The notes: a model not told the origin generated them from the sequence alone. Positions 29,063 through 49,859 are shown, counted from the first letter of the stretch. The stretch: 64,000 bases of DNA from an uncultured Chloroflexia bacterium (GCA_963741915.1 CAVUJW010000009.1:61960-125959), one strand, 5' to 3'. A program made the numbers and translations.

Positions 29063-29340
29063 ACGCGGCCAGATGGCCCGGCCCTGGGCGCACGCGGCGC
29101 GGCGGGACGGCCCTGGGCGCACGCGGCGCGGCGGGACGGCCCTGGGCGCACGCGGCGCGGCGGGACGGCCCTGGGCGCACGCGGCGCGGCGGGACGGCCC
29201 TGGGCGCACGCGGCGCGGCGGGACGGCCCTGGGCGCACGCGGCCGGATGGCCCGGCCCTGGGCGCACGCGGCCGGATGGCCCGGGCCGGGGCGCACGCGG
29301 CGCGGCGGGACGGCCCTGGGCGCACGCGATCGCACGGGTC
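29063..29340. repeat. Tandem array of a 29-bp unit (CCCTGGGCGCACGCGGCGCGGCGGGACGG), about 9.5 copies with two variant units
   Basis: Unit starts at 29082, 29111, 29140, 29169, 29198, 29227 and 29256, with exact 29-bp periodicity. Period is not a multiple of 3 and there are no spacers. Lies between the clpX 3' end and the XRE gene 5' end. Confidence 0.85.
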
Positions 29341-29385
29341 GATGCGGGAACGCGCGTGGTGCCGGGCTGGCCCCGGACCGCCCGC

Positions 29386-30699
<1,314 letters not shown>

Positions 30700-31417: not shown

Positions 31418-32867
31418 TTCAGGCGTCGCCGGCATCAGCCCGCGGCGGCGGGTTCGGGCACCCGGGATCGCCCCGGGATCGGTGGCGTCGATCGAGGCCG
31501 CCGCCTCGGCTTCGGGCGCGTCGACGGCGGACGGCGCGTCGTCCTCGAGATGCGGCAGCGCCGGATGCTCGGGATGGGCGGCCAGCCAGCGGTCCACCAG
31601 CGTCTCGACGACCCGCGTCCGGCGCAGCGTGCTGCGGATGAAGCTGCGTCCGCGCTCGGACTCGAAGTAGCGGACGGTCTTCGGGTCCTCGTAGCGAGCC
31701 CGCGCGCAGCTCGACCTGCGCCTCGACCTCCGCGTCGGGCACCGTCGAGGCCCTCGGCCTCGGCGATCTTCGACAGGACGAGGAGCACCTTGGTCCGCTG
31801 CTCGGCGCGCGGCCGGAACTCGGCGTGCAGGTCCGGCCTCGGTCTGCTCGGTCGCCTTGAGGTAGGCCTCCTCGCGCGATGCCCTGGCGGGCGAGGGTCG
31901 TCCGGAACTCGTCGTGCATCACCTCGACCTCCTGGTCGACCAGGATGTCCGGGAGGTCGATGGTGGCGTTGGCGACGGCGTAGTCGATGATCTGGTCGCT
32001 GAACTCGTGGCGCGCCCGATCGAGCGCGTTGCGCTCGAGCCGCTGGGCGACGTCCGCGCGCAGCTCGGCGAGGTCCGCGTAGTCACCCATGCGAGCGGGC
32101 GAACTCGTCGTCCGCCTCGGGCAGGACCTTCTCGCGCAGCTCCTTGAGCGTCGACCTGGAAGTGGGCCGGCTGGCCGGCCAGCGACGGCTCCGGGTAGTC
32201 GTCCGGGAACGTGATGTCGAAGTCCGTCGTACTCGCCGGGCCGGAGCCCCACGAGGTTGGCCTCGAAGCCCGGGATCAGCCGATCCTCGCCCAGGATCAG
32301 CGGCATCCGCTCGGCCTCGCCGCCGTCGAACGGCTGGCCGTCCCTGGTGCCCGGCGAACCCGATCACCGCCCAGTCGCCGTTCTGGGCGCCACGGTCCTC
32401 GACGGCCGCCAGGGTGGCGTTCTGGTCGCGCAGCTCGTCGATGACCTTGTCGACCTTCGCGTCGTCGACCGTCTCGATCTCGGGCGCGAAGTTGAACTCG
32501 GTGTAGTCGCCCAGCTGTGACCTCGGGCCGGACCTGGACGGTCGCCTTGAAGCGGAGCGGCTTGCCCTCCTCGGCCTCCACGACCTCGACGTCGGCGTTC
32601 GTCAGGGGCAGGATCTCCTGCTCGACCAGCGCCTCGCGGTAGGCGTCCTGGACCAGGTGCTCGACCGCCTCGTCGAGCACCGCGCCGCGGGCCGAGGACG
32701 CGCTCGAGGATCGGGCGCGGGGCCTTGCCCGGGCGGAACCCGGCAACCCGCGTGCGGCGAGACAGGCGGCTCACGGCGTCGCGGACGGCGCGGTCGAGGC
32801 GCTCGGGCGGCACCTCGACCTCGAGCAGGATCGAGCTCTTGGGGGCGGGGGTGGCGGTCACGTTCAT
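31418..32867 (-). CDS. tig: Trigger factor, multiple frameshifts
   Basis: N-terminus [28 protein letters not shown]...[13 protein letters not shown] and PPIase/C-terminal segments ([28 protein letters not shown]) in different frames. Conserved tig-clpP-clpX order. Confidence 0.8.
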
Positions 32868-32985
32868 CGCCGGGCGAGTATAGGGTGGGTCGGCCGGGGG
32901 GCGCGAAGGTGCACGGCGGCCGGATCGTGGAAGGCGGGAGGCAGGCTCGTCCCGCTCGGCGGTCCCGGCCGGTAGACTCGCCGCC

Positions 32986-33026
32986 ACGGGCGAGTGGCGG
33001 AATGGCAGACGCGCCGGCCTTAGGAG
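32986..33026 (+). repeat. 41-bp direct repeat identical to the 5' half of tRNA-Leu (acceptor 5' arm, D-arm, anticodon stem 5' side plus loop); putative att site / left island boundary
   Basis: 32986-33026 is 41/41 identical to 49162-49202. The flanks diverge immediately on both sides. Confidence 0.8.
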
Positions 33027-33745
33027 CGATTCCTGCCCTGCTCAGTGCGCCGCGATCACGGAGTGATGCTAACGAGTCCGAGTTATGTGCGCGCCTCACA
33101 CGCACGGATTTCGGCTGCTTCCTTCGGGTGATGCGAGGACAAGGGCGACGCTCGGCGCAACTCCCCATCGCTGCGGCGAGGCGTCCTGTGCACGCCGCGC
33201 GACGATGCCGATGCACCCGACTCTCGAAATACCAGGAACTGCACGTAGGACAGACGGTACGGCTTGACCGGTCTGTAGGGTGAGGCGGCCCAGCAACTAT
33301 TGGCTGGAGGCGAGGGCGTCTCTGGCCGGCTGCCGCTATGAGGACAGCAGAGTTGGTCGGAGTCGCAAGGCTCGACCGCGAGACCCGCCGCCTCACCGGC
33401 CTCAACGGTCACCACTACGTGTCCCGTCCTTCCTGAATGATCTGCGAGGACAAGCCGTGAGTTCTTCGTGCGGACTGGGTGCGACCCGCACGGAGGCAAA
33501 TCGGCTGCCGCATTGCCATGCGCGAGGTCCGTACCTCGCTGAGCCGCTCGAGATCATCTCGGTCGGGGGCTCCAGATTTACACGAAATTCGAGGGCCGAG
33601 ACTGTTCGGATTTCTTGAGGCGGCTGACGACTCGCCGGGAAAGTTATGATTGACCGCCGCCCAAGGTTGAACTAGAGTGAGCCCACGAGCCGGAACGGCG
33701 CTCGATCGACGCCCGGGAGGCTCGATCTGCGGAAGGGGGTCACGC

Positions 33746-34123
33746 ATGCGACGATCGCTCATCTCCCTGTTCTCTGGCCGTCGCCCTGCTAACACTCGCG
33801 GGGAGTCCCGCCTTGGCCGTGAGCGCCAACATCAACCCGGCCACCCAGAGCCACGCCCACAATGTCTCCTCGAGCTGGACGGGGTCGTGGACCGGCCGAA
33901 TTAAAGCTTCGACACCATCTTCTGGTACGGCGACGGGACCGGGCTCGAGGTCGTTACGAACAACCTGTCGCGAAACTACTCGCACGGCTATTCACCGTGC
34001 CCGGGCGACCCGACAACGTATTACCAGCTCCTCCAGGTCTGGGACAACGTCGGGCACGGCACGGGCAAGCTGTACGCGTCGAGCACGAGCAGCGCGCACG
34101 AGAACGCCGGCACCCCCTGCTGA
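33746..34123 (+). CDS. Small secreted protein (hypothetical), 1-2 frameshifts
   Basis: Strong SD GGAAGGGGG 6 nt upstream of ATG. MRRSLISLF then a signal-like LAVALLTLAGSPALAVSA. The mature part FDTIFWYGDGTGLEVVTNNLSRNYSHGYSPCPGDPTTYYQLLQVWDNVGHGTGKLYASSTSSAHENAGTPC* has protein-like composition. GC is about 60%. Confidence 0.4.
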
Positions 34124-34150
34124 GGACGGTCCGAGCGTATCCTGTCGAAC

Positions 34151-36888
34151 ATGGCGGAGGGTCTTCCCGGGCCGCTGACACGGCTCCGGCGAGATCCTCT
34201 CGCCGTCGTGGCCGTCGTGCTCGTCGCGCTGCTTGCCTCAACGACGGCCGGCATCCATGAGGCGGCAACGATCCGGGTGGCCGCCGTCGTTGATGCCCAC
34301 TGGCGCGGCGCCTACGACATCCTCGTAAGGCCAGCGGGAGCGCGTCTCGACCTCGAGGCCACGAATGGCCTCGTCGAGCCGAACTTCGTTGGATTCACGG
34401 GTTCGGGCGGGATCGGCTTGGACGAGCTCTCGGAGATCCGGAGCGTGGCCGGCGTCGAGCTGGCTGCGCCGATCGGTTTTGTGGGCTATGTGCGCAGCCT
34501 GGCACCGGCCGTCGTTATCGAGCTCGACCAACTGCCGGCGCGACCGACTCTCTATCGAATCGGGCTCGTGTCGACCACCACGGATGGCCTCAACAAGCAG
34601 CTCGTCCAACGCGAATCCGGCGAGATCCTGCTCGGGCCGCCGGCGGCTGGCGATCGTCCTGCTGCCAACTGGGCGTCGAATTTCGGCGATGTCGACGCGA
34701 ACCAGGATCCCGATGGCCGATGGATCGTCGACATCATCACCAAGCGAGCGCTCCTGGGCTCGCTGGTGCCCGTGCTCGCCGTGGACCCCGCCGCCGAGGA
34801 CGAGCTCCTGGCCGGGAATGCACCGTTCCTCGAGCCGCTGCGCCGCGCCGGATCGATCGATCGCACTGCAGGATCCTTCGACGCTGACCTGATCGATCCC
34901 GCCTTCCGGCAGGCCACCGGCCAGCTCCGGTCGATCCAGTCGCCCGGCAACGCGTTCCCCTCGGACCGCATGCTGCCAGTGATTCCGCTTGTCGTGAGCA
35001 GCCGCCAGGTGGCAGCCCTCACAGTCGACCTCACGGTGGATCAGCTGGGCGCGCCCATGCCAGGCTACCCGCCGGGCGGCCTCGCCGCGGCTGAGGCGGA
35101 GGCAGGGTCCGGAACGACTCGGATCGGGACAGCGGCGGGTGATGCGGGCAGCAGCCTCGCTCCGCTGCGGGCACCGTCCCTGTGTCGTCCCGTGGCCGAA
35201 TTCGCACGCGACCTGCGGCGTGGCGAGCCTGTTCTCGACCTCCAGCCTCGACGGACGCTTGATGGAGCGACCCACCTACGTTGTGGCGGCGTCGTCCGGC
35301 CCGGACGGCGGAGCGCCGGCGTTCCGGATCGAGCAGGTCGGGACGGTGGATCCCGACGACGATCCCACCACGCCCGACTTCCGGATGGGCGATCTCGCGT
35401 CGACCGGGGCGTTCCCCGCCTACCGCAAACTGAGGCAGGTTCCGCTCGCAGTTTCCAAGATCCCGTTCTCGCCCCACGCCAACATCCGGGAGCCATTCAT
35501 CCTCGCACCGGTCGGCACCTTCGACGCGACCGCGGTCAAGGTCCCCGACGATCCAATCGACTACGTCCCGCTCGGGGCCTACGACCCCTCCGACACAACC
35601 TACATCGCCGATCCGAGCGGAGCGATTGGCACCCCTACTTCGATGCGTTACCCGCTGCTGCCCGACGGTCTCGTGACAACGCCCCCCCTTGCAATCACCG
35701 ACATTAGGGGCGCGCAGGTCCTCCGCGGCGACTCACCCATCGACGCTGTCCGCGTCCGGGTCGCCGGCATCAACGACTTTGGACCGGCGTCGCAGGCCAG
35801 AATTGAAGCCGTCGCAGCGGCGCTCAAGCGGCTGGGATTTCGACGTCGACATCGTCGCCGGCTCGTCACCCAGGCAGTCGATGTGTACGTCCCGGCCTAT
35901 CACGTTAATCGCGACCCGGCGGGCGATCTCGGCTGGGTCCGGCAGCACTGGACGACCATCGGCGCGGCCGCGCGTGTCACGCACGGATTCGACGCCTCGG
36001 ACCTCGCCTTGCTCATGCTCAGCGCCGCTGCTGCCGCAATCTGGGCATTCGCTCTCGCCGGCCTACGGGCAGAACGCCGGGTCCGCGACGCCGCGATCTT
36101 GACCGCGATCGGCTGGAGTCGGGCAAAGATCGTCCGCTGGCTCACAGGTGAGCCGGTCCTCGGGGCGATCGCCATTGCTGCGCTCGGCATCGTCGGTTTC
36201 GTGGCTGGCGGCGGCAGCCCCGAGGCGGTGGCGGTGGCGGTGGCAATGGCGGTCCTGTGGTTCCTCGCCGGCATTCTTGCGGCCCTGGATGCGGTCCGGC
36301 GGGCGCGGCCGAGCAGCCTTGGGGCGGTTGGAGGCCGGAGCGGGGTCGCACTCCGGATCGGTGTCTCGGACACGCCGACCTACGCGATTTGCGCGGCGAT
36401 CGCGCGGTGGCCGTGGGTGGCGGCCATAGCACTGGGTCTGGGCGCGGCGGGTGCGGCCGTCGCCCTCGGGCTCGCGCTCGTGGCCGGCCTTAGCACACGC
36501 ATCGGCCCGACCCTCCTCGCGTCCGCGGCCAGCGCCGCCGCGGCACTCTACCAGCCAGTCATGCTCACCGCGATCGGGGCGGGCTCCGTGTTCTTCGTCG
36601 TCGTCGCCTTCCGCATGGACCGCCGGCGTCGGGCGCCCGAAGCGCTGATCCTGGTCGTCAGCGGCTGGTCGAGCCGACAGGTTCGGCGCCTGCTCTGGGC
36701 GGGGCTCCTCCTGCCGGCGATCGGCGGTGCCGCCATCGGGGTGGTTGCCGTCGTCGCCCTGGCCGGACCGTTCGAGATCGCAAACCCGGCGCTGCCGGCG
36801 ATCGGTGCCGCCGCGCTGGCCGGGGGCGCGGCGCTCTGGGGCGATCGTCGTCGTCCGTCGTATCGGTGCAAGTCCTGGGGACATCAGA
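34151..36888 (+). CDS. Large ABC transporter permease with roughly 700-aa extracytoplasmic domain and two FtsX-like modules, frameshifts near 35250 and 36870
   Basis: N-terminal TM, long ectodomain, then ILTAIGWSRAKIVRWLTGEPVLGAIAIAALGIVGFVAGG (FtsX-like) and a second module LILVVSGWSSRQVRRLLWAGLLLP. The stop overlaps the ATPase start (TGATG). Confidence 0.6.
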
Positions 36889-37589
36889 TGATGTTGCGAG
36901 AGGCGGATCCCGCGGCGGATCCTAGGCTCGAGGTGACCGGCGTCGAATTGAGCTACCGGCTCCCGGGCGGCGAGCTGCTCCACGTGCTGCGCGGGGTCGA
37001 TCTCGCGGTCGGGTACGGCGAACTGCTCTGTGTCGCCGGCCGGTCCGGATCAGGCAAGACCTCCCTGTTGTATGTCGCGAGCGGGTTGTTGGCCCCGGAT
37101 CACGGCGTCGTGCGATGGCTGGGGGAGGACATCACGCGGCTGACTGCCGCGGAGGTCACCCAACGGCGGCGACACACCATCGGCTTCGTGTTCCAGACCG
37201 GCGGCCTGGTCGACCTGTTGACCGCAGCCGAGAATGTCGCGCTGCCCGGGCTCGCGGACGGCCGCGATCATCGCAATTCGCACGATCGTGGCGATGTTCG
37301 CGCGCGAGTCGCCAGCCTTCTCGAGGAGTTCGACCTATCTCAGCGCGCGCGCCACTTTCCGGCGCAGCTCTCGGGAGGCGAACGGCAGCGCATAGCAGTC
37401 GCGCGGGCACTCTTCGCGGATCCGCCGGTGCTGATCATCGACGAACCGACCGCCAGCCTCGATGCTGCGTCGGCCGAACACATGGTCGAGTTGCTCCGAG
37501 GGATCCGCGACACGGGCCGGGCGGTGCTCGTCGCCTCGCATGACGAGCATGTCATTCGCGGGGCGGATCGCCTCGTGCACCTAGACTGA
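36888..37589 (+). CDS. ABC transporter ATP-binding protein (MacB/LolD-type)
   Basis: Walker A GRSGSGKTSLL, Q-loop, signature LSGGERQRIAVARAL, Walker B VLIIDEPTASLD and the H-motif VLVASHD. Confidence 0.85.
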   Translation: MMLREADPAADPRLEVTGVELSYRLPGGELLHVLRGVDLAVGYGELLCVAGRSGSGKTSLLYVASGLLAPDHGVVRWLGEDITRLTAAEVTQRRRHTIGFVFQTGGLVDLLTAAENVALPGLADGRDHRNSHDRGDVRARVASLLEEFDLSQRARHFPAQLSGGERQRIAVARALFADPPVLIIDEPTASLDAASAEHMVELLRGIRDTGRAVLVASHDEHVIRGADRLVHLD

Positions 37590-37899
37590 TGTTGAACGAG
37601 CTGCGTCTATGCTCGACTGGCGCCTAGCAGTCTCTTGGACGTGGTGCGCGGCCGGATACCGGGCGACCGGAGGAGCAGGGCCCGGCCGTGGAGCCCATTC
37701 CTATGCTTGAACGAATGCCGGACCCGGAGAGCCACGCCGTTGTGGCTCGGCAGCGCCGTCTGGATGGAGCAAGTACTCCTGCACTTCGACGCTATTGGTG
37801 CTCCGCGCCGTCTGACTGCGACGCGCCCGCCTCATCGACCGACTCCGGGTCGGTTCTATGCCAGCGAGCCCTGGCTGCGCGGATCGCATGTTGCTGAGC

Positions 37900-38968
37900 G
37901 CAGGTTGCGGGCGCGCTTCAGGATCTCGTTCTCTGGAAGGCCAGAGTGGAATCGGCGTGCCTCGGCGACGAAGCGATCGTCCGCGGCCGCGCGTGCAGCA
38001 GCCGTGGCGGCGCTGCGATCCCGGACACGCGCCCAGCGCTCGTGGGCAGCCAGGCGGGCGAGGGAAGCGCGATCCCCCGTACCAAGTGGGCGCTCGGCCC
38101 GGTCAGGCGGCTTTGGGCCCGTGGGAGCCCCGGCGCGACTGGCTCAACTTCAGCGCCTCGTCGGCCTCTTCGGCGGCGCCATCGCCGAGAAAATTGCCAG
38201 CCAGGCGTCGGTGCCGACCGGCGTCGGGCACCGCCGCGGCATTGGATCCGACAGGATGTCGCCGAGCGCTGCCCGGCGACCACTGGGGAACATTGGGACA
38301 GTGGCGCACGCTAGGCCGGCCGTTTGAAGCTCGCCGAGACGAGTGCCCGGTGCTCGTCCGTCGAGGCCCTGGTAGCCGCCACCTCGCTTGGCCACGCGGG
38401 CGACGAAGTCGACACGCGCTCTGCTCGGCGTGATGAAGACGACGTGCCAGCCCGAGCGGCCGGCGAGAGCATCGGAATAACGCGCGAGTTTGTCGCGGAT
38501 GTCCTGGCCGTGCTCGGTCGCCTCGTCGATCTCGAGGCAGAGGACGGCCGAGCCCGACTCCGCCCGGAGGGCGACGACGCTATCGGGGTAGACGCCGGGC
38601 AAGAGGTCGGACGCCATATACTCGGAATACCAGACTTGGACAAGCGGGCGACCGTCGCCGGTCGGGGCGCGTACGAGTGCGCAGCCGGTCTCGACCGACG
38701 TTGAGCGAGTGACGGAGCTGGGTCCCGGCGCGGAAGCGCGTGAGCGAGTCGTAGTGGAGGCGGCGGCGGCCCTTGGCCGCGACGCGGAAGGCGAGGGTGA
38801 ACCTCCGCGGGTCGTCGGCGGTAGGACGGCGCGATCGAGATAGCCAAGCTCGTACAGGGCGGAGAAACGTTCCTGGGCGGTCTGGCGGCGTCGGTAGACG
38901 AGGGTCGTCAGCTGGCTGGTGGTTGCGAAGAGGCGGCCGGTCGCGACCGTTCCACCCGTGAGATGCAC
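37900..38968 (-). pseudogene. Replication-relaxation family (Replic_Relax-like) protein, degraded copy 1
   Basis: TSQLTTLVYRRRQTAQERFSALYELGYLDRAVLPP...LLPGVYPDSVVAL...AVLCLEIDEATE...KLARY with several frame changes. Confidence 0.5.
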
Positions 38969-38974
38969 CGCAAG

Positions 38975-39566
38975 GCTGCCCGGCTCCCATCCGGAAAGAC
39001 ATTCGACGCCTGGGAACCGAAAGCCTCGGCGATCCCAGGTGAGGCTCAGTGGGCGCTGCGGACCCTCGACTGGATCGGGCGGGCTGAGAACCTCGTCCTG
39101 GTCGGTCCGTCAGGGACCGGGAAGTCCCATTTCGCCGAGGCGATCGCCCACGCGGCCATTGATCGGGATCTACGCGTGAGCTGGTTCAGTCTCGAGACGC
39201 TGACCGCGACGATCGCCGGGTCCAAGGTCGACGCCTCGATGCACACGGTCGTCGATCGGATCGTCCGATCTGAATTCGATCGTGGTCGACGACATCGGCC
39301 TGCTGCCGGCCGGAGCCGACGAGGCCGAGGCCCTCTATCGCCTCGTCGACGCGGCCTATGAGCGCCGCTCGCTGATCATCACCTCGAACCTGCACCCTGC
39401 CCGCTTCGACTCGATCTTCCCGAAGGGCCTCGCGACGGCGGCCGTCGACCGTCTGCTCCACCACGCCCACGTCATCGTCACCGAGGGTCAATCGCACCGT
39501 CTGACCGAGGCGCTCGAGGGTCGTGGCGTGGAGCCGCTCGATGCATCGTCGGACGAAGGCACTTGA
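38975..39566 (+). pseudogene. istB: IS21-family IstB helper ATPase, N-terminally truncated, internal frameshift
   Basis: Walker A LVLVGPSGTGKSHFAEAIAHAA, then VDDIGLLP...ERRSLIITSNLHPARFDSIFPKGLATAAVDRLLHHAHVIVTEGQSHRL. No istA present. Confidence 0.75.
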
Positions 39567-39704
39567 GAGGTCTCACTGTCCTGCGTGGTCTCCGACGAAG
39601 CCTCTATCGGGATCATCATCGGACCCGGGCTGGGGATGACGACCAAAATGACCTGACGACCCCTTCTCGCATACCCTGCCGATCAACCGGAGAGGTGGCA
39701 ATTC

Positions 39705-40220
39705 GTGTCCGAGACCATGATCGACGAGGCGCGCCGGCGCAACGTTGAGCTCGACGCCGTCAATGGCCGGAATCTGGAAGCGATCGACGCGTTCGGCTGG
39801 GCCCTGGTGATGGTCGGACCAACGCGGAACGAGCGGTTCGTTCCCTTCGCCTACACGATTGGTCTGTCTCGGCTGGACTCGCCGGAGGTGATCATCATCG
39901 GGATCGACCCTTCACCGGCCGGTCGCATTCTGAACGACATTGGCACCATCGCGCTCAACGGCAAGAGGATCGACGTGGGCCCTCTCCCCGGGATTCTCGG
40001 TGGTGACTACATCCTCGATCTGCGGGAGATGGGCGCCCTTCATTACGACGAGTATCTCGGCCGCCTGCTCTGGTTCCACAAGCAGTTCGGCACTGGCCGG
40101 CTGCGTGTCCTCCAAGCGGTCTGGCCGGACAAATTGGGACGCTACCCTAACGACCCGGGTCTAACAGACGAGGAGCGCGCCCGCTTTGTCGAAGGTGAGC
40201 CGCTGCTGGGCCGCGTCTAA
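39705..40220 (+). CDS. DUF4262 domain protein
   Basis: Intact 171-aa ORF GWALVMVGPTRNERFVPFAYTIGLSRLDSPEVIIIGIDPSPAGRILNDIG...RVLQAVWPDKLGRYPNDPG matches the DUF4262 pattern. GC is about 60%. Confidence 0.6.
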   Translation: MSETMIDEARRRNVELDAVNGRNLEAIDAFGWALVMVGPTRNERFVPFAYTIGLSRLDSPEVIIIGIDPSPAGRILNDIGTIALNGKRIDVGPLPGILGGDYILDLREMGALHYDEYLGRLLWFHKQFGTGRLRVLQAVWPDKLGRYPNDPGLTDEERARFVEGEPLLGRV

Positions 40221-40474
40221 GACTGGGCCAGATACGTGGTGCTTCGAGCGGCGAGTCACCGTCGGTTGAATGACCTAGTCGCGAGCGAGGCATCAGCCAC
40301 GGGTCGCTGATCGCGCCTGTCGCAGGCCGCCGGACTTCCGGGTGGGCAGGTTCAGTGGCCGCCGGTGGGCAGATCCGATGGCCACGGCCGGGCAGGATCC
40401 GTGTCCGCCCTCAGGCAGTTCGACTTGGCCATTGACACTCCGATGTCAAGGGACATAAGGGACGGGAGGGTGGC

Positions 40475-40540
40475 GGCCACGAGATCTGGACAGGCGCGGA
40501 CACGGAACCTGGACAGTCGTGGCCACGAGATCTGGACAGT
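40475..40540. repeat. Two direct copies of 20-bp palindromic-core motif GGCCACGAGATCTGGACAG (BglII AGATCT core)
   Basis: Copies at 40475-40494 and 40521-40540. Related inverted copies at 42646-42664 and 42669-42687. Confidence 0.8.
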
Positions 40541-40938
40541 CAGAGGCCCCCGTACGAATCCTCCTCGTCCAGGTCGGCCAATTGGGCCGGGTGTAATGTG
40601 GTCGCGCCGACCCTTCGTCGGTGGAGGCGTGACACATGTTCTGGGACGATCTCGTGCGGCGGTGGCGACGTGAGGCAGGTGGGCTGAACCCACGGCTCCT
40701 CCAATCAGCGGCTGGGCATGTGGCTGTGCTGCCTGGGCCCAGGCCCCGCCGACGTTCCTGGGTCCGCTGGCTTCTCCTGATCGCACTCGGCGTTGTGCTG
40801 ATTGTGCTGCTCGGTCAGGTCGGTCACGGGCAAGCGGTCGCCGTAGTCGCTGCCACCTGACCTCGTCTGGTCGCGTTCGTCAGTCCGGCTGAGATCGCCT
40901 TGGGTTTCGTATACAGGGCCTCAGGCAGTAGCCCCTTG

Positions 40939-41214
40939 TCACTCAGGCTCGGCCGCCTCCAATGGCATCACGCCACGACCGTCGAGTGCCTCGGTGAGGC
41001 GATGCGACGTGCCCTCGGTGACGATGACGTGGGCGTGGTGGAGGAGCCGATCGACGGCGGCGGTCGCAAGGCCCTTGGGGAAGATGGTGTCGAAGCGGGC
41101 CGGGTGGAGGTTGCTCGTGAGGATGAGCGAGCGCCGCTCGTAGGCCGCGTCGACCAGGCGATAGAGGGCCTCGGCCTCGTCGGCGCCGACGGGCAGCAGT
41201 AGGGTCGGCGGCAA
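40939..41214 (-). pseudogene. istB: IS21-family IstB C-terminal fragment (second copy, inverted; about 85% nt identity to 39300-39540)
   Basis: LLLPVGADEAEALYRLVDAAYERRSLILTSNLHPARFDTIFPKGLATAAVDRLLHHAHVIVTEGTSHRLTEALDGRG. Confidence 0.75.
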
Positions 41215-41458
41215 GGCGCCGTGCGGCCTCTCAGCCGTCGGTCTCCTCGCCGCCGCCCTCCGAACCGGACGTGCGCGTTCCCGCGCATCCGGCTCTCCAC
41301 GAACACCCGGAGCAGGTATCGATCACGCGAACGCCTCAGCCAGCCGACCGAGGAACGCCGGATCGTCGTGCGACGTGCGCCCAAAGCGCGCGCCACTCGG
41401 ATCAAGCGTCCCCTCGTTCCATGGGGTCGAGATCCGCCCGCCCCGGAAGCGGTAGGCG

Positions 41459-41961
41459 ATGGTCGAGGCGATGCTTCTGGGCGGCCTGCGCCGCTCTGAG
41501 GTCCTCGGCCTCCGCCTTGCCGACCTCAACCCGGGTGAACGGCGGGTGTTCATCGCGGCGGGCAAGGGCGGTCATCAACGGGTCGTCCCGATCTCGGCCC
41601 GATTCTTCGAGAACTCGGCCGCGTATCTCGCGACCGAGCGTCCCGAGACCCGATCGGAGGCGCTCTTCGTGAGCCTGAAGGGGCACCGCCGGGGACAGCC
41701 CCTCTCGTCGGCCGGGCTCGACGAGATCCTCCGCGGTGCGCGCCGTCGAGCGAGTCTCGGACCGATCACCTGCCACCAGCTCCGCCATACCTGCCTGACC
41801 CGCCTGCGGGAGGCCGGTGCATGGCCCTGGAGGCCATCCAGGCCCGAGCCGGCCACCGCTCGATCGAGTCGACCCGCGTCTATCTGCACTTGACGAGCGA
41901 CTGGCTCGCCGACGAGTACGCTCGGGCGGTCGTGGCCATCGAGGCCGAGGTCGGCCGGTGA
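41459..41961 (+). pseudogene. Tyrosine recombinase (phage integrase family) C-terminal catalytic fragment
   Basis: LLGGLRRSEVLGLRLADL (box I Arg), CHQLRHTCLTRLREAG (box II His-x-x-Arg) and AGHRSIESTRVYLH (catalytic Tyr), with one frameshift. N-terminal core-binding domain is absent. Confidence 0.7.
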
Positions 41962-42253
41962 CCGCCCTCCGGCTGTCGCCGGCGCACGAGCGGCTTGTCG
42001 AGCGGTATGCCGAGGAGCTCTCCCGCGCCGGTACGACGATCGACCACTCCTGGCTGTGGGCGGCCGCGCCTTCTGTGCGCGTTTTCGGTGATGGCGAGAC
42101 TTGGTCCGCCCTCGGCGTCGCCGATCAGATCGCCCTCAGACATTGAAGATTTAAGCGCTTCGTCGCGTGGCTGATCGCGACCCGTCGCCTGCGGCCGAGC
42201 GCCGAGTACCTCGTGACTCGCAGGATCCACCTGGGCGACATCGTCGCCCGTCA

Positions 42254-42547
42254 TCATCCGGACTTCTTCGCCGAGGTCCAGCGCCACCGCAGCCGAGATC
42301 GGATTTCGGCCCGGCGTCGATCGGGCGCCAGTGGCGCGCGCTTACGCAGGTCTGCGCCCTCGCCCGGATCGAGGACCTGGTCGCGTCGCGCGGATCGACC
42401 GGTCGGCAGTCGGCCGGTCTCGCGCAGGCGGACATAGCGGGCGACGGTCATCGGCGAGCAACCGGCCAGGCGAGCCGCATCACGCAGGCTGCCCGTCAGG
42501 TCGAACGCCTCGAGGATCTCAATGATGTCTCCGGTATACCTTGCCAT
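42254..42547 (-). CDS. HTH domain protein (transposase-type N-terminal HTH, possible IstA remnant)
   Basis: MARYTGDIIEILEAFDLTGSLRDAARLAGCSPMTVARYVRLRETGRLP resembles IS21/IS481 transposase N-terminal HTH. Confidence 0.4.
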   Translation of the reverse strand: MARYTGDIIEILEAFDLTGSLRDAARLAGCSPMTVARYVRLRETGRLPTGRSARRDQVLDPGEGADLRKRAPLAPDRRRAEIRSRLRWRWTSAKKSG

Positions 42548-42645
42548 ATTGCCGCCCTCGGTTCCTGGGGTTCCACAACACCCTCAGTGAACCGGGGAGG
42601 GACGACTCAGCTCACGGCGCCCTCAGGCGACCGTCCGGCGAGCCC

Positions 42646-42687
42646 GTCCAGATCTGGTGGCCGCCACCGTTCAGATCTCGTGGCCGT
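42646..42687. repeat. Two inverted copies of the GGCCAC(G/C)AGATCTG(G/A)AC motif
   Basis: gtccagatctggtggccgc (42646-42664) and gttcagatctcgtggccgt (42669-42687). The reverse complement matches the 40475 and 40521 copies. A shared flanking block gcggacacgRaacctgRac is also conserved. Confidence 0.8.
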
Positions 42688-43086
42688 CAGCGTTCAGGTT
42701 CGTGTCCGCCTCCGTCCACATTCCCATGTCCGCTGGCACGAGACCACTGGCACGTCGCCGCGAGTGCGACAATCGCCCGCCCGGATCCGCAGGGGAGATC
42801 GGTCGCGGAGACGTACAACGGTTGTTCGATACCGGACCGCGTCAGCTCGGATTGGCAGCCGGCGTGGTGGGACCCCCGAGTAATTCCCCATCGAGCCTAC
42901 GCCCGTCCCGGCCGGCTGCCGGCGTTGGTCAAGCATTTGCTCTTGCCCGTGTCGAGTTGCTATTGACTTCCAACGAGTCGGGGGGGCACAGTGACCAGGG
43001 TTGTCCTAGAAGGTGCTGGAGGGGGATGTGCCAAGTCTTGAAGTTAGACGACCGGGACGCTGGTCCAAGTTGAGGCTCAGGCCGCG

Positions 43087-43662
43087 TTGGGCAATCAAGC
43101 TCGGTCTAGCACCAATCCTGATCCTCGTCTTCTTCCAGGCACCGCTTTCGGATATCACTGGGCAACCGACGGCTGGTCAGATCGACATACGGGATATCCA
43201 GCGGTCCCCAATGGCCTGAGCGCAATCAACAGCACATTTGGAACGCGCTGCACCAGTAACTTCATCTTCAACAAGTTCACGTGGCTGGCCGAGAACGCCA
43301 GCTGGAACGTGAACTTCCACAAGAAGCTCGGGGAGCGCCGACCCCAGGTTGGGTACGTGGGAAACGGCGGCGGATCGACGCAACCTCTTCTATGACGTCC
43401 GCGGACACATCGCGAACGGCCATATGACCGTCCTGGGCGGTATCGGGGGCATAACTGCCGGCTGCAGTCCGGCTCCACGACGCTCTGGAGCACCCACGCC
43501 TGGGGTATTGCCATCGACATCAACTGGAACCACGAGCACGTTGGTCACTGCCACAACCACACCATCCCAGCAAATGTCTCGAGCACGTTCCAGAATCACG
43601 GATGGGAATGGGGATTGGCGTTCTGCGACGCCGAGCACTTCCAATATGCGACGGGCTACTGA
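43087..43662 (+). CDS. M15-family zinc peptidase (VanY/endolysin-like D,D- or L,D-peptidase), about 3 frameshifts; start uncertain
   Basis: Exact SxHxxGxAxD motif (STHAWGIAID), followed by NHGWEWGLAF and the third Zn ligand region DAEHFQY, then stop. GC about 55%. Pieces are in ORFs 43087-43395, 43349-43735 and a third frame. Confidence 0.5.
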
Positions 43663-43847
43663 TATGACTACGGATTCGATCCGCCAAGCGCGGAATCATC
43701 CCTCGTTGCCGTCGCAGCCATGCTCGGGACCTTAGTTGGAGTCGCCACGGCCGCGCCGAAACCGCTCGCCGTAGCCGAAGCGCCTTTCGACGTGGCGCAG
43801 ATCACCGGAACGGGCGAGCGTCTGATCCTGGTCATCAGCGGCAGATT

Positions 43848-44303
43848 TTGACCAGAGAGGACGCCGAAAAGGGGGTGGCCGCCATTAGCTTCGGTGACAT
43901 GGCCGGCTTCTATGTCGACTTGACGGACAACTACAACGTCATCGGTGTCTATGGTCAAAAAGATCCGGACATTGTGCCGATCACGTGCGAAGACATTCCC
44001 CAGTCGGTCGGAGAATGCGAACCTGGCAGCATCATCGAGGCCCATCAGGCCGTTACGCTTCAATACCGCGAGCTGACCCCGGGTAAGGGCCTTGCACTCG
44101 ATCCGGACGACCCGGCGTGCGATTTGATCGGGCATCCGCCGTGTGTATCGAAGCGCCTGAATGCGCTTCTCACCGGATCCGATGAACAGCTCGAGAAAGG
44201 GAACTTCCTCGCTCTGTCGGCGTTCCGCACGCTGACTGGTGCGGAGGAGTTTGCCGAGCTGCTGGTGATCGCGGAGCAATTGTCAGTGTCATACGAGCAG
44301 TAA
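43848..44303 (+). CDS. Hypothetical protein (low GC, island cargo); possible upstream signal-peptide exon at 43729 if a frameshift is assumed
   Basis: Intact 151-aa ORF with balanced composition (MTREDAEKGVAAISFGDMAGFYVDLTDNYNVIGVYGQKDPDIVPITCEDIPQSVGECEP...). The upstream ORF MLGTLVGVATAAPKPLAVAEAPF is signal-like. Confidence 0.45.
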   Translation: MTREDAEKGVAAISFGDMAGFYVDLTDNYNVIGVYGQKDPDIVPITCEDIPQSVGECEPGSIIEAHQAVTLQYRELTPGKGLALDPDDPACDLIGHPPCVSKRLNALLTGSDEQLEKGNFLALSAFRTLTGAEEFAELLVIAEQLSVSYEQ

Positions 44304-45349
44304 AGGCCGGGGACACGTACGTCGGCCTCGGTGGGAAGCCCCGTCCAGGCACGGCGAAATCTAGGCCAGTGCTCAGTCCCTCAGTGATCCCGACAAGTAT
44401 CGAGCAGTAGGCTTCGAGCCCTCGCTTGGTTTGCGGTTCTAAGCGATCAGGCGCTCGCTCTGAGCGATCCCCGAGCCTTCGGGTGGTCAGGGCTATGCCA
44501 CCGCCGCCGAGCCCGAGCGCCTCGATTGCCTGGCGGAGACTGGCCACATGCCCCGAAGCAGTAAACGGATCAGGTCGTCCCGGACGACCTTCAGCTGATG
44601 AGACCGCTCAATTGTCGCGTCTGGTAGTCTGGCCCAGTGGCGTACGGGTCCAGTTCGCGGCGGTACCCGGATCGCGTCGAGTTGACGATCCTCTCGGGAG
44701 TCACAGGCCAGGCTGCCCGGCGCGGATACCGGTCGCCGCGTCGAACGTCCGCGGTAATTCGAGCGACAATGACCTCGCCCGGTTCCGGGACCCTGATTAC
44801 TCGGTGGCACGAAGCAGACGAACGTGCGCTCCGTGCGGTCGGTAGGCGGCGTTCTCGCGAGCCGGGTTAACGGAAACCGAGCTCGACGCCGTCTATTTGC
44901 CGAGGGTTAAGGTAAGGTCGCGCTGCGTTGCCGCCGCTCCAGGGCGTGGCCCGAGTCGACGATGGTAGACAGCAGTCCTTAGCAGGCGCCGCCAGACGAT
45001 TGGCCAACATGGGAATACGCTTTGACCGCTGCAGATCGAGGCCGACCGTTTCCTGCGCGAGACGATCGACCGGGTCCGCGACGCCGGCGCGAGCGGCAAG
45101 CCTCAGTCGCGCTTAGGTGCGCGGCACAACTTGCCAGGGGGCCGACACTATGTCCATTAAGCGGCGAGACAATCGATCGTCGGGTCGTGCCGTCGCCCGG
45201 CAGCATCGGCCTTCGACGGGCGGCTCCGAGTCGGGGGCTTCTGCCACCGCGCCCCCGGGCAGGTGCGGACCAGCATGCGCCGAGCACCGGGTTGCGGGCG
45301 CCGCTTCACGATCTCCTCGTCCGCGGGGCCGGGATGGAATTGGGGGCGA

Positions 45350-46420
45350 GCTTTCCACGATGAAGACGATCGTCGGCCGCCGTCCGGCCAGCGGTTGCCG
45401 CGCTGTCGATCTACCGAACACGCGCCCAGCGCTCATGGGCGAGCCAGGCCGGCGAGTCGAGGCACGATCTGTTACACGGAGAGTGCGGCCGGGCCTGTCG
45501 GGCCGAGGTGCCGGCTGATCGCTGCGCCGATGCACGGTCACCGCAGCGCCTCCTCCGTCTCCTCGGCACCGCCGGTACCGAGGACCTGGAGCCAGGCATC
45601 GGTGCCGAACCGGCGTCGCGCAGCGGCGCGGCGCGGGGTGCGGTGGCGAGTTCGCCGAGCGCGGAGTCGCCGGCCACCAATGAACAGCGGAGCCAAGATG
45701 TCATCCCGAGGCCGGAGCAGAAGAGCTTCGCCGAGCGCTAGCGCCCATGCGCGACCGGATCACGCCCGGATCGCCACCACCGCGCCGAGCAACGCGGGCG
45801 AGGAAATCGAAGCCGTCTGTCGGCTCGAGGACAACTGAAGAGCGACGTTCCGGCCGGAGCGGCCACGGAGGGCATCGCCGTAGCGGGCGAGCTCTGTCGG
45901 CAGGATTCTGCGGCCGTGCTCGGTCCCCTGGGTCGATCTCGAGGCAGAGGACTGCCGAGACGGTCGGTGCCTGGAGGGCGACGACGCTGTTGGGGTAGAC
46001 GCCGGGCAGGAGCTGCGCGGCGAGGTACATCGGGGTACGCGAGCTGGACCGGTGGCGGTCGGGCGGTGCGCGTGGCCCGGACGAGGGTGCAGAAGCGGTC
46101 TCGCGTCGTTGAGCGAGTGGCGAGAAGCTGGGTGCCGGCCCCGGAAGACGGGTTGAGCGAGAGGATGAGCCCAGACAGCATCGGGCCTCGGCCGACACGG
46201 CCGGAAGGCGTCTGGTACTCCGCCGCGGCTTGACGGTGGCAGGACGGCGCGATAGAGATTAGCCGACGATCTAGAGGGCGGAGAGGAGGTCTGCCTGCGG
46301 CGGTCTGGCGGCGCCGGTAGGCGAGAGTAGTGAGCTGAGGCCGTTGATGGCGACATCGCAGCGGTAGAGGAGTAGAAGGAGCAGGCCCGATCACAGTAGC
46401 GAAGGAGACCGGAGTCCATC
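45350..46420 (-). pseudogene. Replication-relaxation family protein, degraded copy 2 (paralog of 37900-38968)
   Basis: SSQLTTLAYRRRQTA...LYRAVLPPSSRGG...MYLAAQLLPGVYPNSVVALQAPTVSAVLCLEIDPGD. About 75-80% nt similarity to copy 1, including the downstream region (45418 vs 38028). Confidence 0.5.
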
Positions 46421-47999
46421 GCCGTCCGACGATCTGGTCACGGCGGCCAATGCGAGACGCCCGATCACGGAGTAGGGTCCCGCGGTCAAGGTCTCCCGCA
46501 TCCGCATAGCGATTCAGGGGCAGCCGATCGGGGCGCCGAAGACCCCGTCCCGCGACCCGCCAAACAACCAGTCCCACGTCATGCGGCAGACATGCCCGTC
46601 GGCGCGAGTCATCGATCACCTGACCCAGGCTGTTCGTGTTATCCAATTCGGGGCGACCTCGACCAAGGGCCTCAAGTCCTTCGTTTTCGAAGGCGGCCCG
46701 ACTCTTCAAGCTGCGAGTGGCGGGCCGGGACCGTGTCCGCGGGCGGGCGATCGAGCGGCGCGGCCGTCTGGCGCAGGGACGAGGCGTCGATCGACCGACC
46801 GGCCACGGCCGACCGGTCCGACGGCGCGGACCTTGACGATCAGCTACCCGGTTCGTCGTCAGCGACCAGTGGAGCGGTGAAGCTCCTCCTGGCTCGACGC
46901 GACGGGTGGCTGCAGTGGCAGCTCGGGTCCAGCCGAGAGCGGCGAGCGGACGATCGAGCGAGAGAGGCCGAGCCGCCTGCTCCGACCGTAGTCGCGAGCG
47001 ACGCGGCGGTGGGAGAGGGGGTTTAAGTCTATTGTTCAATCTATTGGGCCGACGGTCGACGTCCCAATTGACGCCCAGGACGACGTCTGCGACGCTACCG
47101 ATCGTGCTCGAGACAAAGCCAACCATACAACCTCAGCCGACGGACGGTCGGGACAGTCCAGACGCGCCGCCGAGCGCAGGATTGGCACCGAGCCCAGGAC
47201 GCCCTCGTCGAGACTACGCCATCGACAAGAGCTCGCCCGCCATGCCGGGAGGCCGACCCGAGGCGGATGCCTGGGCGGAGGCAGGCTGCCCGAACTGCGA
47301 GTTCACAGGCCAAGGCCGAGGATCTCGAGGCCCGTCTACTCGGACCGCGGACGCCGAGAGCGTGGCCCCCGGTGTAGCGGGTTCAACCGCTCGGCTGCGC
47401 ATGCGTCAGTCGTCGACCTCGACCCGACCGAGGGCCACGAGCAGGCGGGCTCCTCGAGCAGGCCCTCGTCAGTCAGCTACGAGGCGTTTCCGCCGCTCGG
47501 GCCTCCTTGACGGTCTGCCCCGTCAGCCGCGGCGCGCGAGCGGCGGCGGTATCTGCAGGGTGAGGATCGCGGTCCCGGCAGGAGAGGCTGGCCAGACGAA
47601 GGACGGGCCCCATGCCTATGTGCCCAGGTCTGGACAGTACTCGGTCCGCCAGGATCCGGGCATGCCGGCGTCCTGCCCGACGGTCGGATCACCTACCTCG
47701 CGGAGCCGCGGATCCGGTCAGCGGTCCACGCGGCATTACGACATCGCTTCGGGAACTCGACATCCGCGCCCTCTCGGACGGCGCCGCCGGTCGGGTAAGG
47801 CGGTTGGAGGCGGTTCGTGACCAGACGTGTCGGCCCGGCTGTCTGCAGAGCCACGCGATGAGCGGGCTGCCCACCCTCCTCGGGCCGGTGCATCCGCGAA
47901 TCACGTAGTGAGTAAGGTCTCAGGGCGATTCCCGCCTGAGCACGAATTTGTCTCGCGCCTGGTCAATCACCCATCTGTCATCTATGGCGATTGATGAGA

Positions 48000-49050
48000 G
48001 CACGTTGCGGACCGCGTTTGCGGGTCGCAGACACTGACGTGACCGCGGAGCGCCTTGCCATCGCGTCCCTCCCACTCTGTCCCTTCTGGGTCCTCTGGTC
48101 AGCGCTGGCGCGCGAGGCGGGTCGAGTCGGGCTGCGGTAGGCCGCACGCGCCCGCTCGGCCGCCGCCGATGCGCTCCATAGCGCGAGAGCATCGAGCGAT
48201 CCGCCCAGCCGCCCAGGACCATCACGTCGCCCTCGCTGTGGCCGCTTGCCAGCATGCTCGATCGCCCAGGTGTGGCGAAGCTGATGGGGGTGGACGCGGA
48301 GCCCGCCTGCGCGGCTCGACGGCCGATGGTGTGGTAGATCTCGTTGCCGGTCAGCGGCTGGCCCGTTCTCGCCCGCCACAGCGGCTCAGTCGGTCGCCGT
48401 GGGGCGCTCGGGGATGGCGCAGGTAGCGGAGCAGCGCCTTGGCGGTTGAGGCGCCGTAGACGACCGCCCTGCCACGTCGGCTCTTCGACGTCGAGGCCTC
48501 CACGAAGGCGACCTGTTGCGCGAGGTTCAGGTCCACGACCCGAGCCCGGCCAGCTCACCGCGGCGGATGCCCGTGTCGAGCATCAGGGACAGCATGGCCA
48601 GGTCGCGGCGGGCGATGAAGTCGGTCCCGGCGCAGGCGGCCAGCAGGCTCGCTGACCTCTTCGTCACGGAGCACCGCCGGGGGATTGACCGGCACCGATG
48701 GGGTCCGCATCTTCTCCATCGGCTTGCGCGCGATCTCGTCCTCGTCGACGAGCCAGCGCGAAGAACGGGCGCAGGGCGCGGAACAGGATGGAGACCGTGG
48801 CCGGCGCGTTGCCGCGCGCCTGGAGCTCCACGAGGAAGGCTTCCAGGTGCTCGCGGCGGATGGCGCCCAGCTCGCGCGGCATGCCCCTCTCGACGAGGAA
48901 GGGGTCGAGGCGATCGAGGGCCCGCAGGTAGGTGGCGATGGTCCGCGGCGCGCGGCCCACGCTGCGCAGGTGAAGGGTCCAGTAGTCGCGCGTGCTCGCG
49001 ATGGTCGGGCCGGACGCTAGACTAGGGGTCTCGGTGGTGGTCCTTGCCAT
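48000..49050 (-). pseudogene. int: Tyrosine recombinase/integrase (XerC/XerD-like SAM core-binding plus catalytic domain), multiple frameshifts, adjacent to tRNA-Leu
   Basis: N-domain YWTLHLRSVGRAPRTIATYLRALDRLDPFLVERGMP...REHLEAFLVEL. Catalytic HPHQLRHTWAIEHAG and LGGWADRSMLSRYGAH in different frames. Confidence 0.7.
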
Positions 49051-49162
49051 GGTGCGGGGCCTCTGTGTGACGAAAGGAACGAACACCCAGAGTTATACGC
49101 GCCTCATGCACTGTGCGCAAGCCCTCCACCGAGTTATACGCGACTCCTAAGCACAAAACCGC

Positions 49163-49250
49163 GGGCGAGTGGCGGAATGGCAGACGCGCCGGCCTTAGGA
49201 GCCGGTGTTCCGTGAGGAACGTGTCGGTTCGACCCCGACCTCGCCTACCA
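49163..49250 (+). tRNA. tRNA-Leu (anticodon TAG), type II with long variable arm, CCA encoded
   Basis: Manual cloverleaf: acceptor GGGCGAG/CTCGCCT (G1-U72), D-arm GCG-GAATGGCAGA-CGC, anticodon stem CCGGC/GCCGG with loop CTTAGGA, variable arm GTTCC-GTGA-GGAAC, T-arm GTCGG-TTCGACC-CCGAC, discriminator A, CCA. Confidence 0.85.
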
Positions 49251-49270
49251 CGAACGCGTCGCGCGACGCG

Positions 49271-49859
49271 TCAGGCGGCGCCCTCCGGGCCGTCGCCACC
49301 CGAGGCCTCGCGGGCGCGCCTCGCCCGCACCTTGTCGAGCTGGGCCTCGAAGCCCGGCCGGTCCGGCGAGAGCACCTGCTCCGCGAGCTGGCGGCCCACG
49401 CGCTGGGCGACGGGCTTGCCGACCAGCGCCAGCATCGCGGCGGTCACCCCGGCCAGGTCACGGTCCTTGCGCTCGGGCGCCTTCTCCTTGAGGTAGGCCG
49501 CGAACTCGCGTTCGATCGTGCCGCGGACCCGGGCACCGTCGGGGCCCAGCTTCTTGAGCGTCTTCTCGATCTCCTTGGGCAGCATCGACTTGGGCAGCGG
49601 ATCGGGCTTGCCGAAGATGGCGTTGCGGGCGCCCCGGAGCACCTTGGCCGGGCCCCCCAGCAGCAGGAAGCCGGCACCGGCCGCCGCGCCGGCCGTCCGG
49701 ACGGGGTTGCGCCGGATCTTGGCGCGGATGTCGACCGCCGCCCGGGCCGCGGCCTCGAGGCGCTCGAGCTCGTCGTCCAGGGCCGTGCGGGATGCCCGGG
49801 CCTCCGCGCGTGCCGCGATGACCTCGGGCCGGGTGGCCAGGACCTCCATGTCGGGGGTC
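49271..49859 (-). CDS. DUF3618-like coiled-coil protein (hypothetical)
   Basis: MTPDMEVLATRPEVIAARAEARASRTALDDELERLEAAARAAVD...GAGFLLLGGPAKVL. The start overlaps the upstream ORF stop (ATGA). Confidence 0.4.

Follow-up and report, generated by a model that had tools for sequence, protein, structure and literature searches.

Positions 32987-49250 of a 64,000-nucleotide stretch of DNA from an uncultured Chloroflexia bacterium (GCA_963741915.1, CAVUJW010000009.1:61960-125959; hereafter the window) are probably an integrated island from a conserved, integrase-borne family that targets the anticodon-loop region of tRNA-Leu(TAG) in Limnocylindria, a class of the Chloroflexota. The family is a previously undescribed but conventional one, and belongs to a known kind of element. 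The host was assigned from ClpX, which in a search with one genome per species is 84-89% identical to that of the Limnocylindria/Chloroflexota metagenome-assembled genomes L001-L004; on the same matches, an actinomycete host was rejected. Limnocylindria is an abundant class in soil and freshwater for which, to our knowledge, there is no cultured model and almost no mobile elements have been described.

The only tRNA gene in the window is a tRNA-Leu(TAG) on the plus strand at 49163-49250, predicted by ARAGORN in agreement with Rfam. Positions 32987-33027 and 49162-49202, at a distance of 16,175 bp, are identical at 41 of 41 bases and have the same orientation; extending the repeat to 32984-33027 gives 43 matches in 44. 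The repeated segment spans base -1 to position 40 of the tRNA, comprising the 5' strand of the acceptor stem, the D arm, the 5' strand of the anticodon stem, the loop and two bases of the 3' strand. A 41-bp repeat of the tRNA 5' half had already been reported in the first-pass annotation of the window; it is real and correctly oriented, with coordinates that were one base too low. The same annotation had described patchy low GC, which was borne out: the interval of ~16.2 kb between repeat and tRNA is lower in GC, with 1-kb windows at 0.59-0.65 around 33-34 kb, 39-41 kb and 42.5-45 kb compared with 0.72-0.78 in the flanks. That a 41-mer should recur exactly within 64 kb cannot, on simple probability, be chance. 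That the repeat might be a segmental duplication or a coincidental match unrelated to integration has a negligible probability, as nothing beyond its existence speaks for this, whereas it runs from tRNA position 1 to two bases past the anticodon loop in two independent relatives as well as in the window, the duplication takes in no more of the flanks, and relatives have empty sites.

These empty sites are found in L002 and L004, where a conserved gene (R), a single tRNA-Leu(TAG), tig, clpP and clpX are contiguous and co-directional and the interval is absent; both relatives are ~78% identical to the window in DNA and belong to different species. A search for relatives without the insertion was the check proposed by the first-pass annotation. 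L001, by contrast with these empty sites, is occupied: an intact integrase gene lies 108 nt upstream of tRNA-Leu and divergent from it, the tRNA is followed by tig, and the integrase-tRNA stretch is 78.5% identical to window positions 47898-49250. A metagenome scan with the L001 integrase identified 24 contigs that encode a relative, and the integrase adjoins tRNA-Leu(TAG) in 13 of the 13 contigs scanned for tRNAs. Two of the relatives are smaller, complete elements. L086 features the tRNA, the integrase gene, 4.4 kb of cargo and a 40-nt copy of the 5' half, followed by R, with a repeat spacing of 5,479 bp, while L094 features tig, the tRNA, the integrase gene, cargo and a 41-nt copy of the 5' half, with a spacing of 5,164 bp. 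Empty sites and complete relatives together uphold the earlier proposal of an element integrated between the tRNA and its displaced 5' half. The relatives have only the integrase/att module in common, sometimes with toxin-antitoxin and Replic_Relax genes. Even where contigs share at least 95% integrase identity with L001, the DNA past the integrase gene occurs in at least five unrelated versions, and the cargo genes differ in the annotated cases, L082 and L086. The cargo of relatives includes a Fic protein, an extracytoplasmic function (ECF) sigma factor with a Kelch protein, glyoxalase, DUF998 and SnoaL proteins, and another ABC exporter.

The attachment sites can be defined at the level of the family. 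The displaced 5' half at 32987-33027 (plus strand) is attL, and a 40-41-nt fragment likewise ends the L086 and L094 elements. Still joined to it is the native tRNA-Leu promoter-like box GGTAGACTC (32971-32979, plus strand), which has a counterpart upstream of the intact tRNA in the empty site of L004 (cgcGGTAGACTCggggcc) and upstream of the attL copy of L094, and which is a candidate promoter of tRNA-Leu. The intact tRNA gene at 49163-49250 is attR, a rebuilt gene according to the geometry deduced from the 5'-half repeat, L086 and L094. The identity block extends from tRNA position 1 to position 40-41 in each of the three complete elements, those of the window, L086 and L094. A single D-loop base distinguishes the two repeat copies of L094 and puts the crossover on its 3' side, which fits a crossover that would lie in the anticodon loop.

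Conserved arms flank both sites. The arm at attL (33028-33109, plus strand) carries the motif GAGTTATGTGCGC at 33080-33092, and over its 80 nt of element DNA the window and L086 share 76-84% identity. The arm at attR (49090-49143, plus strand) carries two direct copies of GAGTTATACGCG, at 49090 and 49131. In terms of the arm motif GAGKYATRCGCG, there are three copies in direct orientation, two of them on the integrase side (-73 and -32 from tRNA +1) and one on the far side (+92). These positions are constant across the window and twelve related loci while the surrounding sequence drifts. Nine of the twelve match the exact pattern at both -73 and -32; in L001 and L097 the match is limited to -73, and both positions hold variants in L093 and L094. 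The +92 motif has the same distance to the core in the window, L086 and L094. Scans around both att sites found no sigma-70 promoters or terminators. A perfect 18-nt palindrome, ACGCGTCGCGCGACGCGT (49254-49271), lies between the 3' end of the tRNA and the stop codon of the convergent R gene, and a hairpin resembling it follows the tRNA in L096.

The putative integrase of the island, a XerC/D-like tyrosine recombinase of ~314 aa, is encoded beside the tRNA at 48100-49050 on the minus strand, where several 1-2-bp insertions break the frame. In tblastn, residues 1-292 of the L001 integrase align over frames -2/-3/-2 with 56-78% identity. The 314-aa ortholog in L001 (370-1314) is intact, as is the open reading frame (ORF) in at least ten other contigs. 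Pfam indicates an N-terminal SAM-like domain, and the best matches are to XerC (3.5e-38) and XerD (4.5e-37) in NCBIfam and to PDB entry 1a0p (8.5e-19). The integrase resembles the chromosome-dimer recombinases XerC, XerD and XerA, which supply its best sequence matches and share its two-domain layout, but unlike XerC and XerD it scores well under the equivalog cut-offs (132 versus 335 bits), is absent at the locus in empty-site genomes and travels with a tRNA-derived attP. The last two properties argue that it acts as an element integrase.

Taken together, these features suggest a simple route of integration. The attP of the circular form would carry an exact copy of tRNA positions 1-40 flanked by the conserved arm motifs, with the integrase gene encoded divergently 110 bp from this tRNA copy. 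Recombination between attP and the chromosomal tRNA gene would leave the native promoter and native 5' half at the far end of the island, as attL, and would rebuild a full tRNA at the integrase end, as attR, from the 5' half and upstream DNA of the element and the 3' half of the host. Behind the integrase gene, the element carries genes for a MazEF-like pair, for a Replic_Relax protein and its conserved partner of 101 aa, and for variable cargo. Excision to a circle is the predicted reverse step.

The content of the island was examined by ORF, six-frame and fragment-wise Pfam scans, which together cover nearly all of it, and by NCBIfam, PHROGs and PADLOC. Next to the integrase gene, a MazF/PemK-like toxin gene (47409-47774, plus strand) encodes a product 48% identical to a 138-aa protein of L086 that matches PF02452 (3.8e-20). 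It is preceded by a gene for a 110-aa protein (47027-47332, plus strand) that was detected by tblastn with the 110-aa ORFs of L086 and L082 (34-44% identity); its place upstream of the MazF-like gene suggests that it encodes the antitoxin.

Two Replic_Relax modules are present, each on the minus strand and each with a gene for a conserved 101-aa protein. Replic_Relax (PF13814) corresponds to the MOBC relaxase class (PMC5357655) and has a PD-(D/E)XK fold (PMC3424549). Copy A (38150-38968) matches PF13814 at 8e-08, with 33 bits against a cut-off of 25.3, and is 61% identical to an L082 protein that itself matches at 4.5e-14; matches in relatives range from 4.5e-14 to 2e-17. A sequence search of PDB with the Replic_Relax protein gave no match. 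The 101-aa partner of copy A (37804-38092) is 66-82% identical to an L086 ORF over two frames, and sequence searches with it returned neither a family nor a PDB match. Copy B (45541-46659) is syntenic with the gene in L082 and L084 and was detected by tblastn with residues 2-359 of the L082 protein (E 1.4e-22), within a stretch of the window, 45235-47843, that is 76.5% identical in DNA to L082 2720-5212. Its 101-aa partner (45301-45440) is fragmentary, with 62-64% identity to the L086 ORF over two frames in tblastn. The first-pass annotation had listed two replication-relaxation pseudogenes; the genes are there, while their designation as pseudogenes is unsafe given the assembly noise described below.

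The cargo at the attL end is an exporter module of three genes on the plus strand. The first (33771-34120) encodes a small protein of ~123 aa and contains one frameshift; it was detected by tblastn with the 123-aa protein of L105 (58-77% identity over two frames), and this gene precedes the permease gene in both L105 and L106. The second (34151-36908) encodes an FtsX-family ABC permease of ~890 aa with a Pfam FtsX match and a frame switch near 35183. Against the 890-aa protein P0001, residues 11-323 correspond to 34244-35185 in frame +2 and residues 323-832 to 35181-36713 in frame +3, with 63% identity. The 'secreted protein' that had been assigned to 34151-35707 is thus the N-terminal third of this permease, split off by the frameshift, and the remainder of the permease belongs to an 816-aa ORF of which it takes up a part. 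The third gene (36909-37589) encodes an FtsE/LolD/DevA-like ABC transporter ATPase (Pfam ABC_tran 7e-29, with NCBIfam matches to FtsE/LolD/DevA) that is 65% identical to the ATPase of L105. The whole module also occurs in ordinary chromosomal contexts of other Chloroflexota.

Between the two Replic_Relax modules lies the region at 39-43 kb, the one part of the island with truly truncated pieces of mobile elements, beyond what 1-bp errors explain. A truncated C-terminal fragment of IS21 IstB at 39204-39566 (plus strand) covers only positions 156-235 of the 238-position Pfam IstB_IS21 profile, and a second at 40939-41199 (minus strand) covers positions 165-234; the first fragment and 40955-41199 form a 245-nt inverted repeat with 84% identity. 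The second fragment abuts the 3' end (domains V-VI) of a group II intron (41199-41297, minus strand; Rfam RF00029, 53.1 bits versus a gathering threshold of 40, E 3.6e-08), which suggests that such an intron was once inserted in an istB gene. No reverse transcriptase ORF was found, and the six-frame Pfam scans of the island gave no RVT domain. The end of the intron meets the start of the 245-nt inverted-repeat arm exactly. At 41444-41893 (plus strand) lies a second tyrosine recombinase, N-terminally truncated and reduced to the catalytic domain (Pfam Phage_integrase, 5.5e-22 and 2e-23), which is 35% identical to the element integrase in tblastn with residues 147-260 of the L001 protein. A cluster of 23-nt repeats resembling GGCCACGAGATCTGGACAG (40370-40540) has inverted copies at 42639-42701, adjoined by a possible remnant of the IstA N-terminal helix-turn-helix (42340-42520, minus strand; Pfam HTH_29, a weak match under the family cut-off, E 0.0064). 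The adjacent IstB and IstA fragments indicate that these repeats are probably multiple terminal repeats of IS21 type. An intact IS21 at 40370-42701 was considered and rejected, as only IstB positions 165-234 and the weak IstA match are present; Pfam scans found no rve domain in this interval, and its interior instead holds the tyrosine recombinase fragment and the group II intron end.

Two further genes lie in this part of the island, a DUF4262 gene (39657-40220, plus strand; Pfam 6.5e-25) and a small ORF for a VanY-like Peptidase_M15_4 protein in the patch of lowest GC (43349-43735, plus strand; six-frame Pfam 2.1e-08, with the match at 43471-43647). No further domains beyond those described were found across the Pfam coverage of the island, and PHROGs and PADLOC gave no match for the low-GC ORFs at 42-45 kb and 33-35.7 kb. 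The integrase at the tRNA, the second recombinase fragment, the IstB remnants, the DUF4262 and M15 peptidase genes and the ABC exporter had all been named in the first-pass annotation and are all present. Its suggestion that the island was the best candidate in the window for an undescribed system did not hold, as the Pfam, NCBIfam, PHROGs and PADLOC scans returned ordinary cargo only, with nothing that amounts to an undescribed system.

The arrangement, in which a pair of diverged modules of Replic_Relax and 101-aa genes encloses the fragments of IS21, group II intron and recombinase and is joined by an ordinary FtsX/ABC exporter module, suggests that the 16.2-kb island is an accretion of two backbones, which tandem integration followed by deletion may have produced. 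Integrase fragments are also left over downstream of the intact integrase gene in L082 (2345-2671) and L091 (3226-3858). The L082 leftover is a 233-nt integrase 3' end, 83% identical to window positions 48099-48334. Such fragments are consistent with repeated tandem integration followed by deletion.

Many genes of the window appear frameshifted, both inside and outside the island. In the left flank, tig, clpP and clpX are all on the minus strand, and tig and clpP are each broken across several reading frames. Alignment of the conserved genes of the window to four relatives revealed 10 window-specific single-base insertions in 1 kb of tig, one in clpP, 13 in a conserved gene at 17.8-20.8 kb and three each at 50.8-51.7 kb and 54.3-55.4 kb. 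In total, these conserved genes contain ~30 window-specific 1-2-bp insertions, which lie outside homopolymers, and no 1-bp deletions were found in the same alignments. Examples of the insertion spots are 17790-20814, 30976, 31708-32687, 51354-51716 and 54314-54638. The integrase gene beside the tRNA shows the same pattern relative to its L001 ortholog, and gene calling over the island by third-position GC (GC3) and frame plots was unusably noisy, with frames that switch every few hundred bases. The insertions are most likely the error signature of a noisy long-read consensus, unpolished or of low coverage, rather than biology. As they occur without deletions in housekeeping genes, frameshift-based pseudogene calls are unsafe across the window.

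This bears on whether the island is alive. The first-pass annotation had called it decayed, and an immobile relic, with genuine pseudogenes for integrase, relaxase-type proteins and cargo and with nothing but att scars left, would account for the repeatedly broken integrase frame and for the truncated IstB, IstA, recombinase and group II intron pieces at 39-43 kb that 1-bp errors do not explain. Yet the density of 1-bp insertions is equal or higher in tig, clpP and other conserved genes, every event is an insertion where natural decay would not be limited to one type, the two att copies have kept their identity over 41 bp, and the arm motifs have stayed intact. We therefore consider a genuine relic unlikely. 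The truncated debris is real, whereas the frameshifts match the noise in housekeeping genes and the integrase ortholog is intact elsewhere. With most apparent frameshifts attributed to assembly errors, the element may well be intact.

Among known systems, the island is closest in geometry to the class A islands of Islander, which found a 5' tRNA fragment in 159 of 3,919 islands, or ~4% (PMC4383910). As in this class, an intact tRNA gene (49163-49250) and an end fragment in the same orientation (32987-33027), both on the plus strand, share one replicon, and the fragment is a 5' fragment (positions 1-40) that lies upstream of the full gene. A tyrosine integrase gene is located inside the interval, by the rebuilt tRNA gene (49050-48100, minus strand; with frame breaks ascribed to assembly noise). 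The block of identity ends in the anticodon stem-loop, the length is within 2-200 kb, and the interval is absent from relatives (PMC4383910). The island differs from class A islands in its host, an uncultured Chloroflexota class, in a cassette that is inverted relative to conserved synteny, and in a short XerC/D-like integrase that has no recognisable arm-binding domain yet is accompanied by three conserved direct arm motifs.

The gene content is reminiscent of integrative and mobilisable elements (IMEs), which in streptococci include members with a relaxase of the Rel_PF13814 class (PMC5357655). Shared features are the combination of an integrase with a PF13814 protein, the small size (5-16 kb), the accessory cargo and toxin-antitoxin genes, and the lack of genes for a conjugative pore or coupling protein, of which none was found by ORF and six-frame Pfam scans across nearly all of the island. 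Of an integration and excision module, the integrase and both att sites are present, with no excisionase recognised. As to the relaxase or origin of transfer (oriT) expected of such elements, copy A matches PF13814 at 8e-08 and proteins of relatives do so at 4.5e-14 to 2e-17. The island differs from PF13814 IMEs in that its relaxase is a prediction from sequence, PLSDB contains no relative, and L086 and L094 have no PF13814 gene. Replic_Relax is therefore not a defining part of the island family. Where the gene is present, mobilisation might proceed via its relaxase-like, MOBC-type product, and the MazEF-like pair might stabilise the element.

The actinomycete elements pSAM2 and SLP1 rebuild the 3' part of a tRNA gene and carry FtsK-like Tra and Rep genes. 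Like them, the island is small, high in GC and inserted into a tRNA gene by a tyrosine integrase; unlike them, it rebuilds the 5' half, gave no match to either type of gene in the Pfam scans and resides in a host that is no actinomycete. The first-pass annotation had proposed a comparison of the internal ORFs with databases of actinomycete integrative and conjugative elements and integrative and conjugative elements (AICE/ICE), a framing at odds with a Chloroflexota host and with the failure to find conjugation or FtsK-type genes. A prophage, phage satellite or AICE/ICE-type conjugative element would also integrate at a tRNA by means of a tyrosine integrase and could carry toxin-antitoxin and relaxase-type genes. 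In the island, however, no PHROG structural or lysis family was matched, the sole PHROG match being a weak 'replication initiation by nicking' for the relaxase-type protein, and IMG/VR contained no close relative of the integrase. The near-complete six-frame Pfam coverage revealed no FtsK/SpoIIIE, type IV secretion system, coupling-protein or Rep (replication initiator) domains, and the host belongs to the Chloroflexota rather than the Actinomycetota. We regard an element of any of these types as highly improbable.

Several observations weigh against an integrated, mobile member of a tRNA-Leu island family. An excisionase was not recognisable in the window or its relatives, either by family scans or in a search for a small conserved gene near attL in the window, L086 and L094, and the integrase has no recognisable arm-binding domain. 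Neither an oriT nor conjugation machinery was found, so mobilisation is conjecture. Copy B of Replic_Relax has no Pfam match at 0.01, no relative of the L082 protein occurs among the plasmids of PLSDB, and the minimal relatives dispense with the gene. The empty sites are known from other species (L002 and L004) rather than from the same population, genuine frameshifts would mean a dead element, and the inverted orientation of the cassette (below) is not predicted by the integration model.

A different view of the same module is that integrase and attP form a long-term resident platform for cargo exchange in Limnocylindria rather than a freely moving element. The divergence of the integrase roughly tracks that of the host, and this, together with the five or more unrelated cargo versions and the leftover integrase 3' fragments that would mark repeated accretion, is what points to residence. 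We consider it unlikely. By rebuilding the 5' half of the tRNA, the module would also swap its promoter region, with the native promoter pointing into the island, and the flip of the cassette in this genome could reflect selection on, or recombinase action at, the captured tRNA unit.

The orientation of the cassette sets the window apart from its relatives. Both empty sites and all eight distinct occupied sites with readable flanks share the order R, (promoter, 5' half, island, integrase), tRNA, tig, in which R, the tRNA and tig all run in one direction; the L086 element has R at its attL side, and that of L094 has tig at its tRNA side. In the window, the segment from ~32950, just outside the promoter box, to 49271, at the palindrome after the tRNA, is reversed, and as a result the displaced half and its promoter abut tig while the rebuilt tRNA converges on R (49271-50440, minus strand), the right flank of the island. 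The empty site predicted by the first-pass annotation, with position 32985 joined to 49203, was accordingly right in content and wrong in orientation, as the tRNA of all relatives has the opposite direction, relative to both flanks, to the one predicted.

A search at the two inversion breakpoints found no direct or inverted repeats above shuffled controls. Only two short spacers would allow an inversion that leaves R, the tRNA unit and tig intact, and the breakpoints are located in these, a placement that fits a real inversion filtered by selection, before or after integration. The inversion might instead be an assembly artefact, in which case the true genome would have the canonical order of R, promoter and 5' half, island, integrase, tRNA and tig. 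The assembly is demonstrably noisy, the canonical orientation holds at both empty and all eight readable occupied sites, and the breakpoints lack repeats that could mediate a biological inversion. One would, however, expect an artefact to break within the 41-mer repeat or where a contig ends, whereas the junctions lie in two short intergenic spacers outside the promoter and the tRNA terminator hairpin, where a viable inversion must break, and both flanks are otherwise collinear with relatives, including L002 and L004, over tens of kb. We judge an artefact to be unlikely. Predictions of empty sites from synteny must allow for local inversion.

Other variation was observed around the target site in relatives. 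A second island was considered in the 4.7 kb between tRNA-Leu and tig in L081, L083 and L084, and was rejected, as this interval contains no tRNA fragment and its genes look ordinary; in this lineage, L084 5079-9805, from the 3' end of tRNA-Leu to tig, encodes a GGDEF-type protein, an HD-domain protein and large surface or repeat proteins. In L003 (1-1881), L005 and L006 there is no tRNA-Leu upstream of tig, so the linkage of tRNA and tig has been broken more than once in the class. The empty site of L002 has four tandem copies of a 21-nt unit, ggcctggattggccgggtttc, between tRNA-Leu and tig (7522-7600). The contigs of L082, L088 and L090-L093 end within ~30 nt of the 3' end of tRNA-Leu, which suggests branching of the assembly graph and hence population heterogeneity at this position.

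Elsewhere in the window, 20814-29386 is a second variable region: these ~8.5 kb between clpX and the next conserved gene have no counterpart in L001-L004, where the two genes are nearly adjacent. GC falls to 0.67 at 22-23.5 kb within it. Directly downstream of the clpX stop codon lies a tandem array of ~12 copies with a 29-nt period (29033-29386), and a second array with a 16-nt period is located at 27950-28061.

The main value of this analysis lies in a corrected reading of decay, an att site defined for a whole family and an in-place inversion that is unexplained. By-eye calls of 'pseudogene' or 'decayed' on this window should be discounted, given an assembly rich in insertion errors. For Limnocylindria, there is now an island family with defined att sites, arm motifs and minimal members. 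Its 5'-half geometry, which is uncommon, means that the DNA upstream of a tRNA gene that looks conserved comes from the element rather than from the host, which would have a regulatory consequence for that gene.

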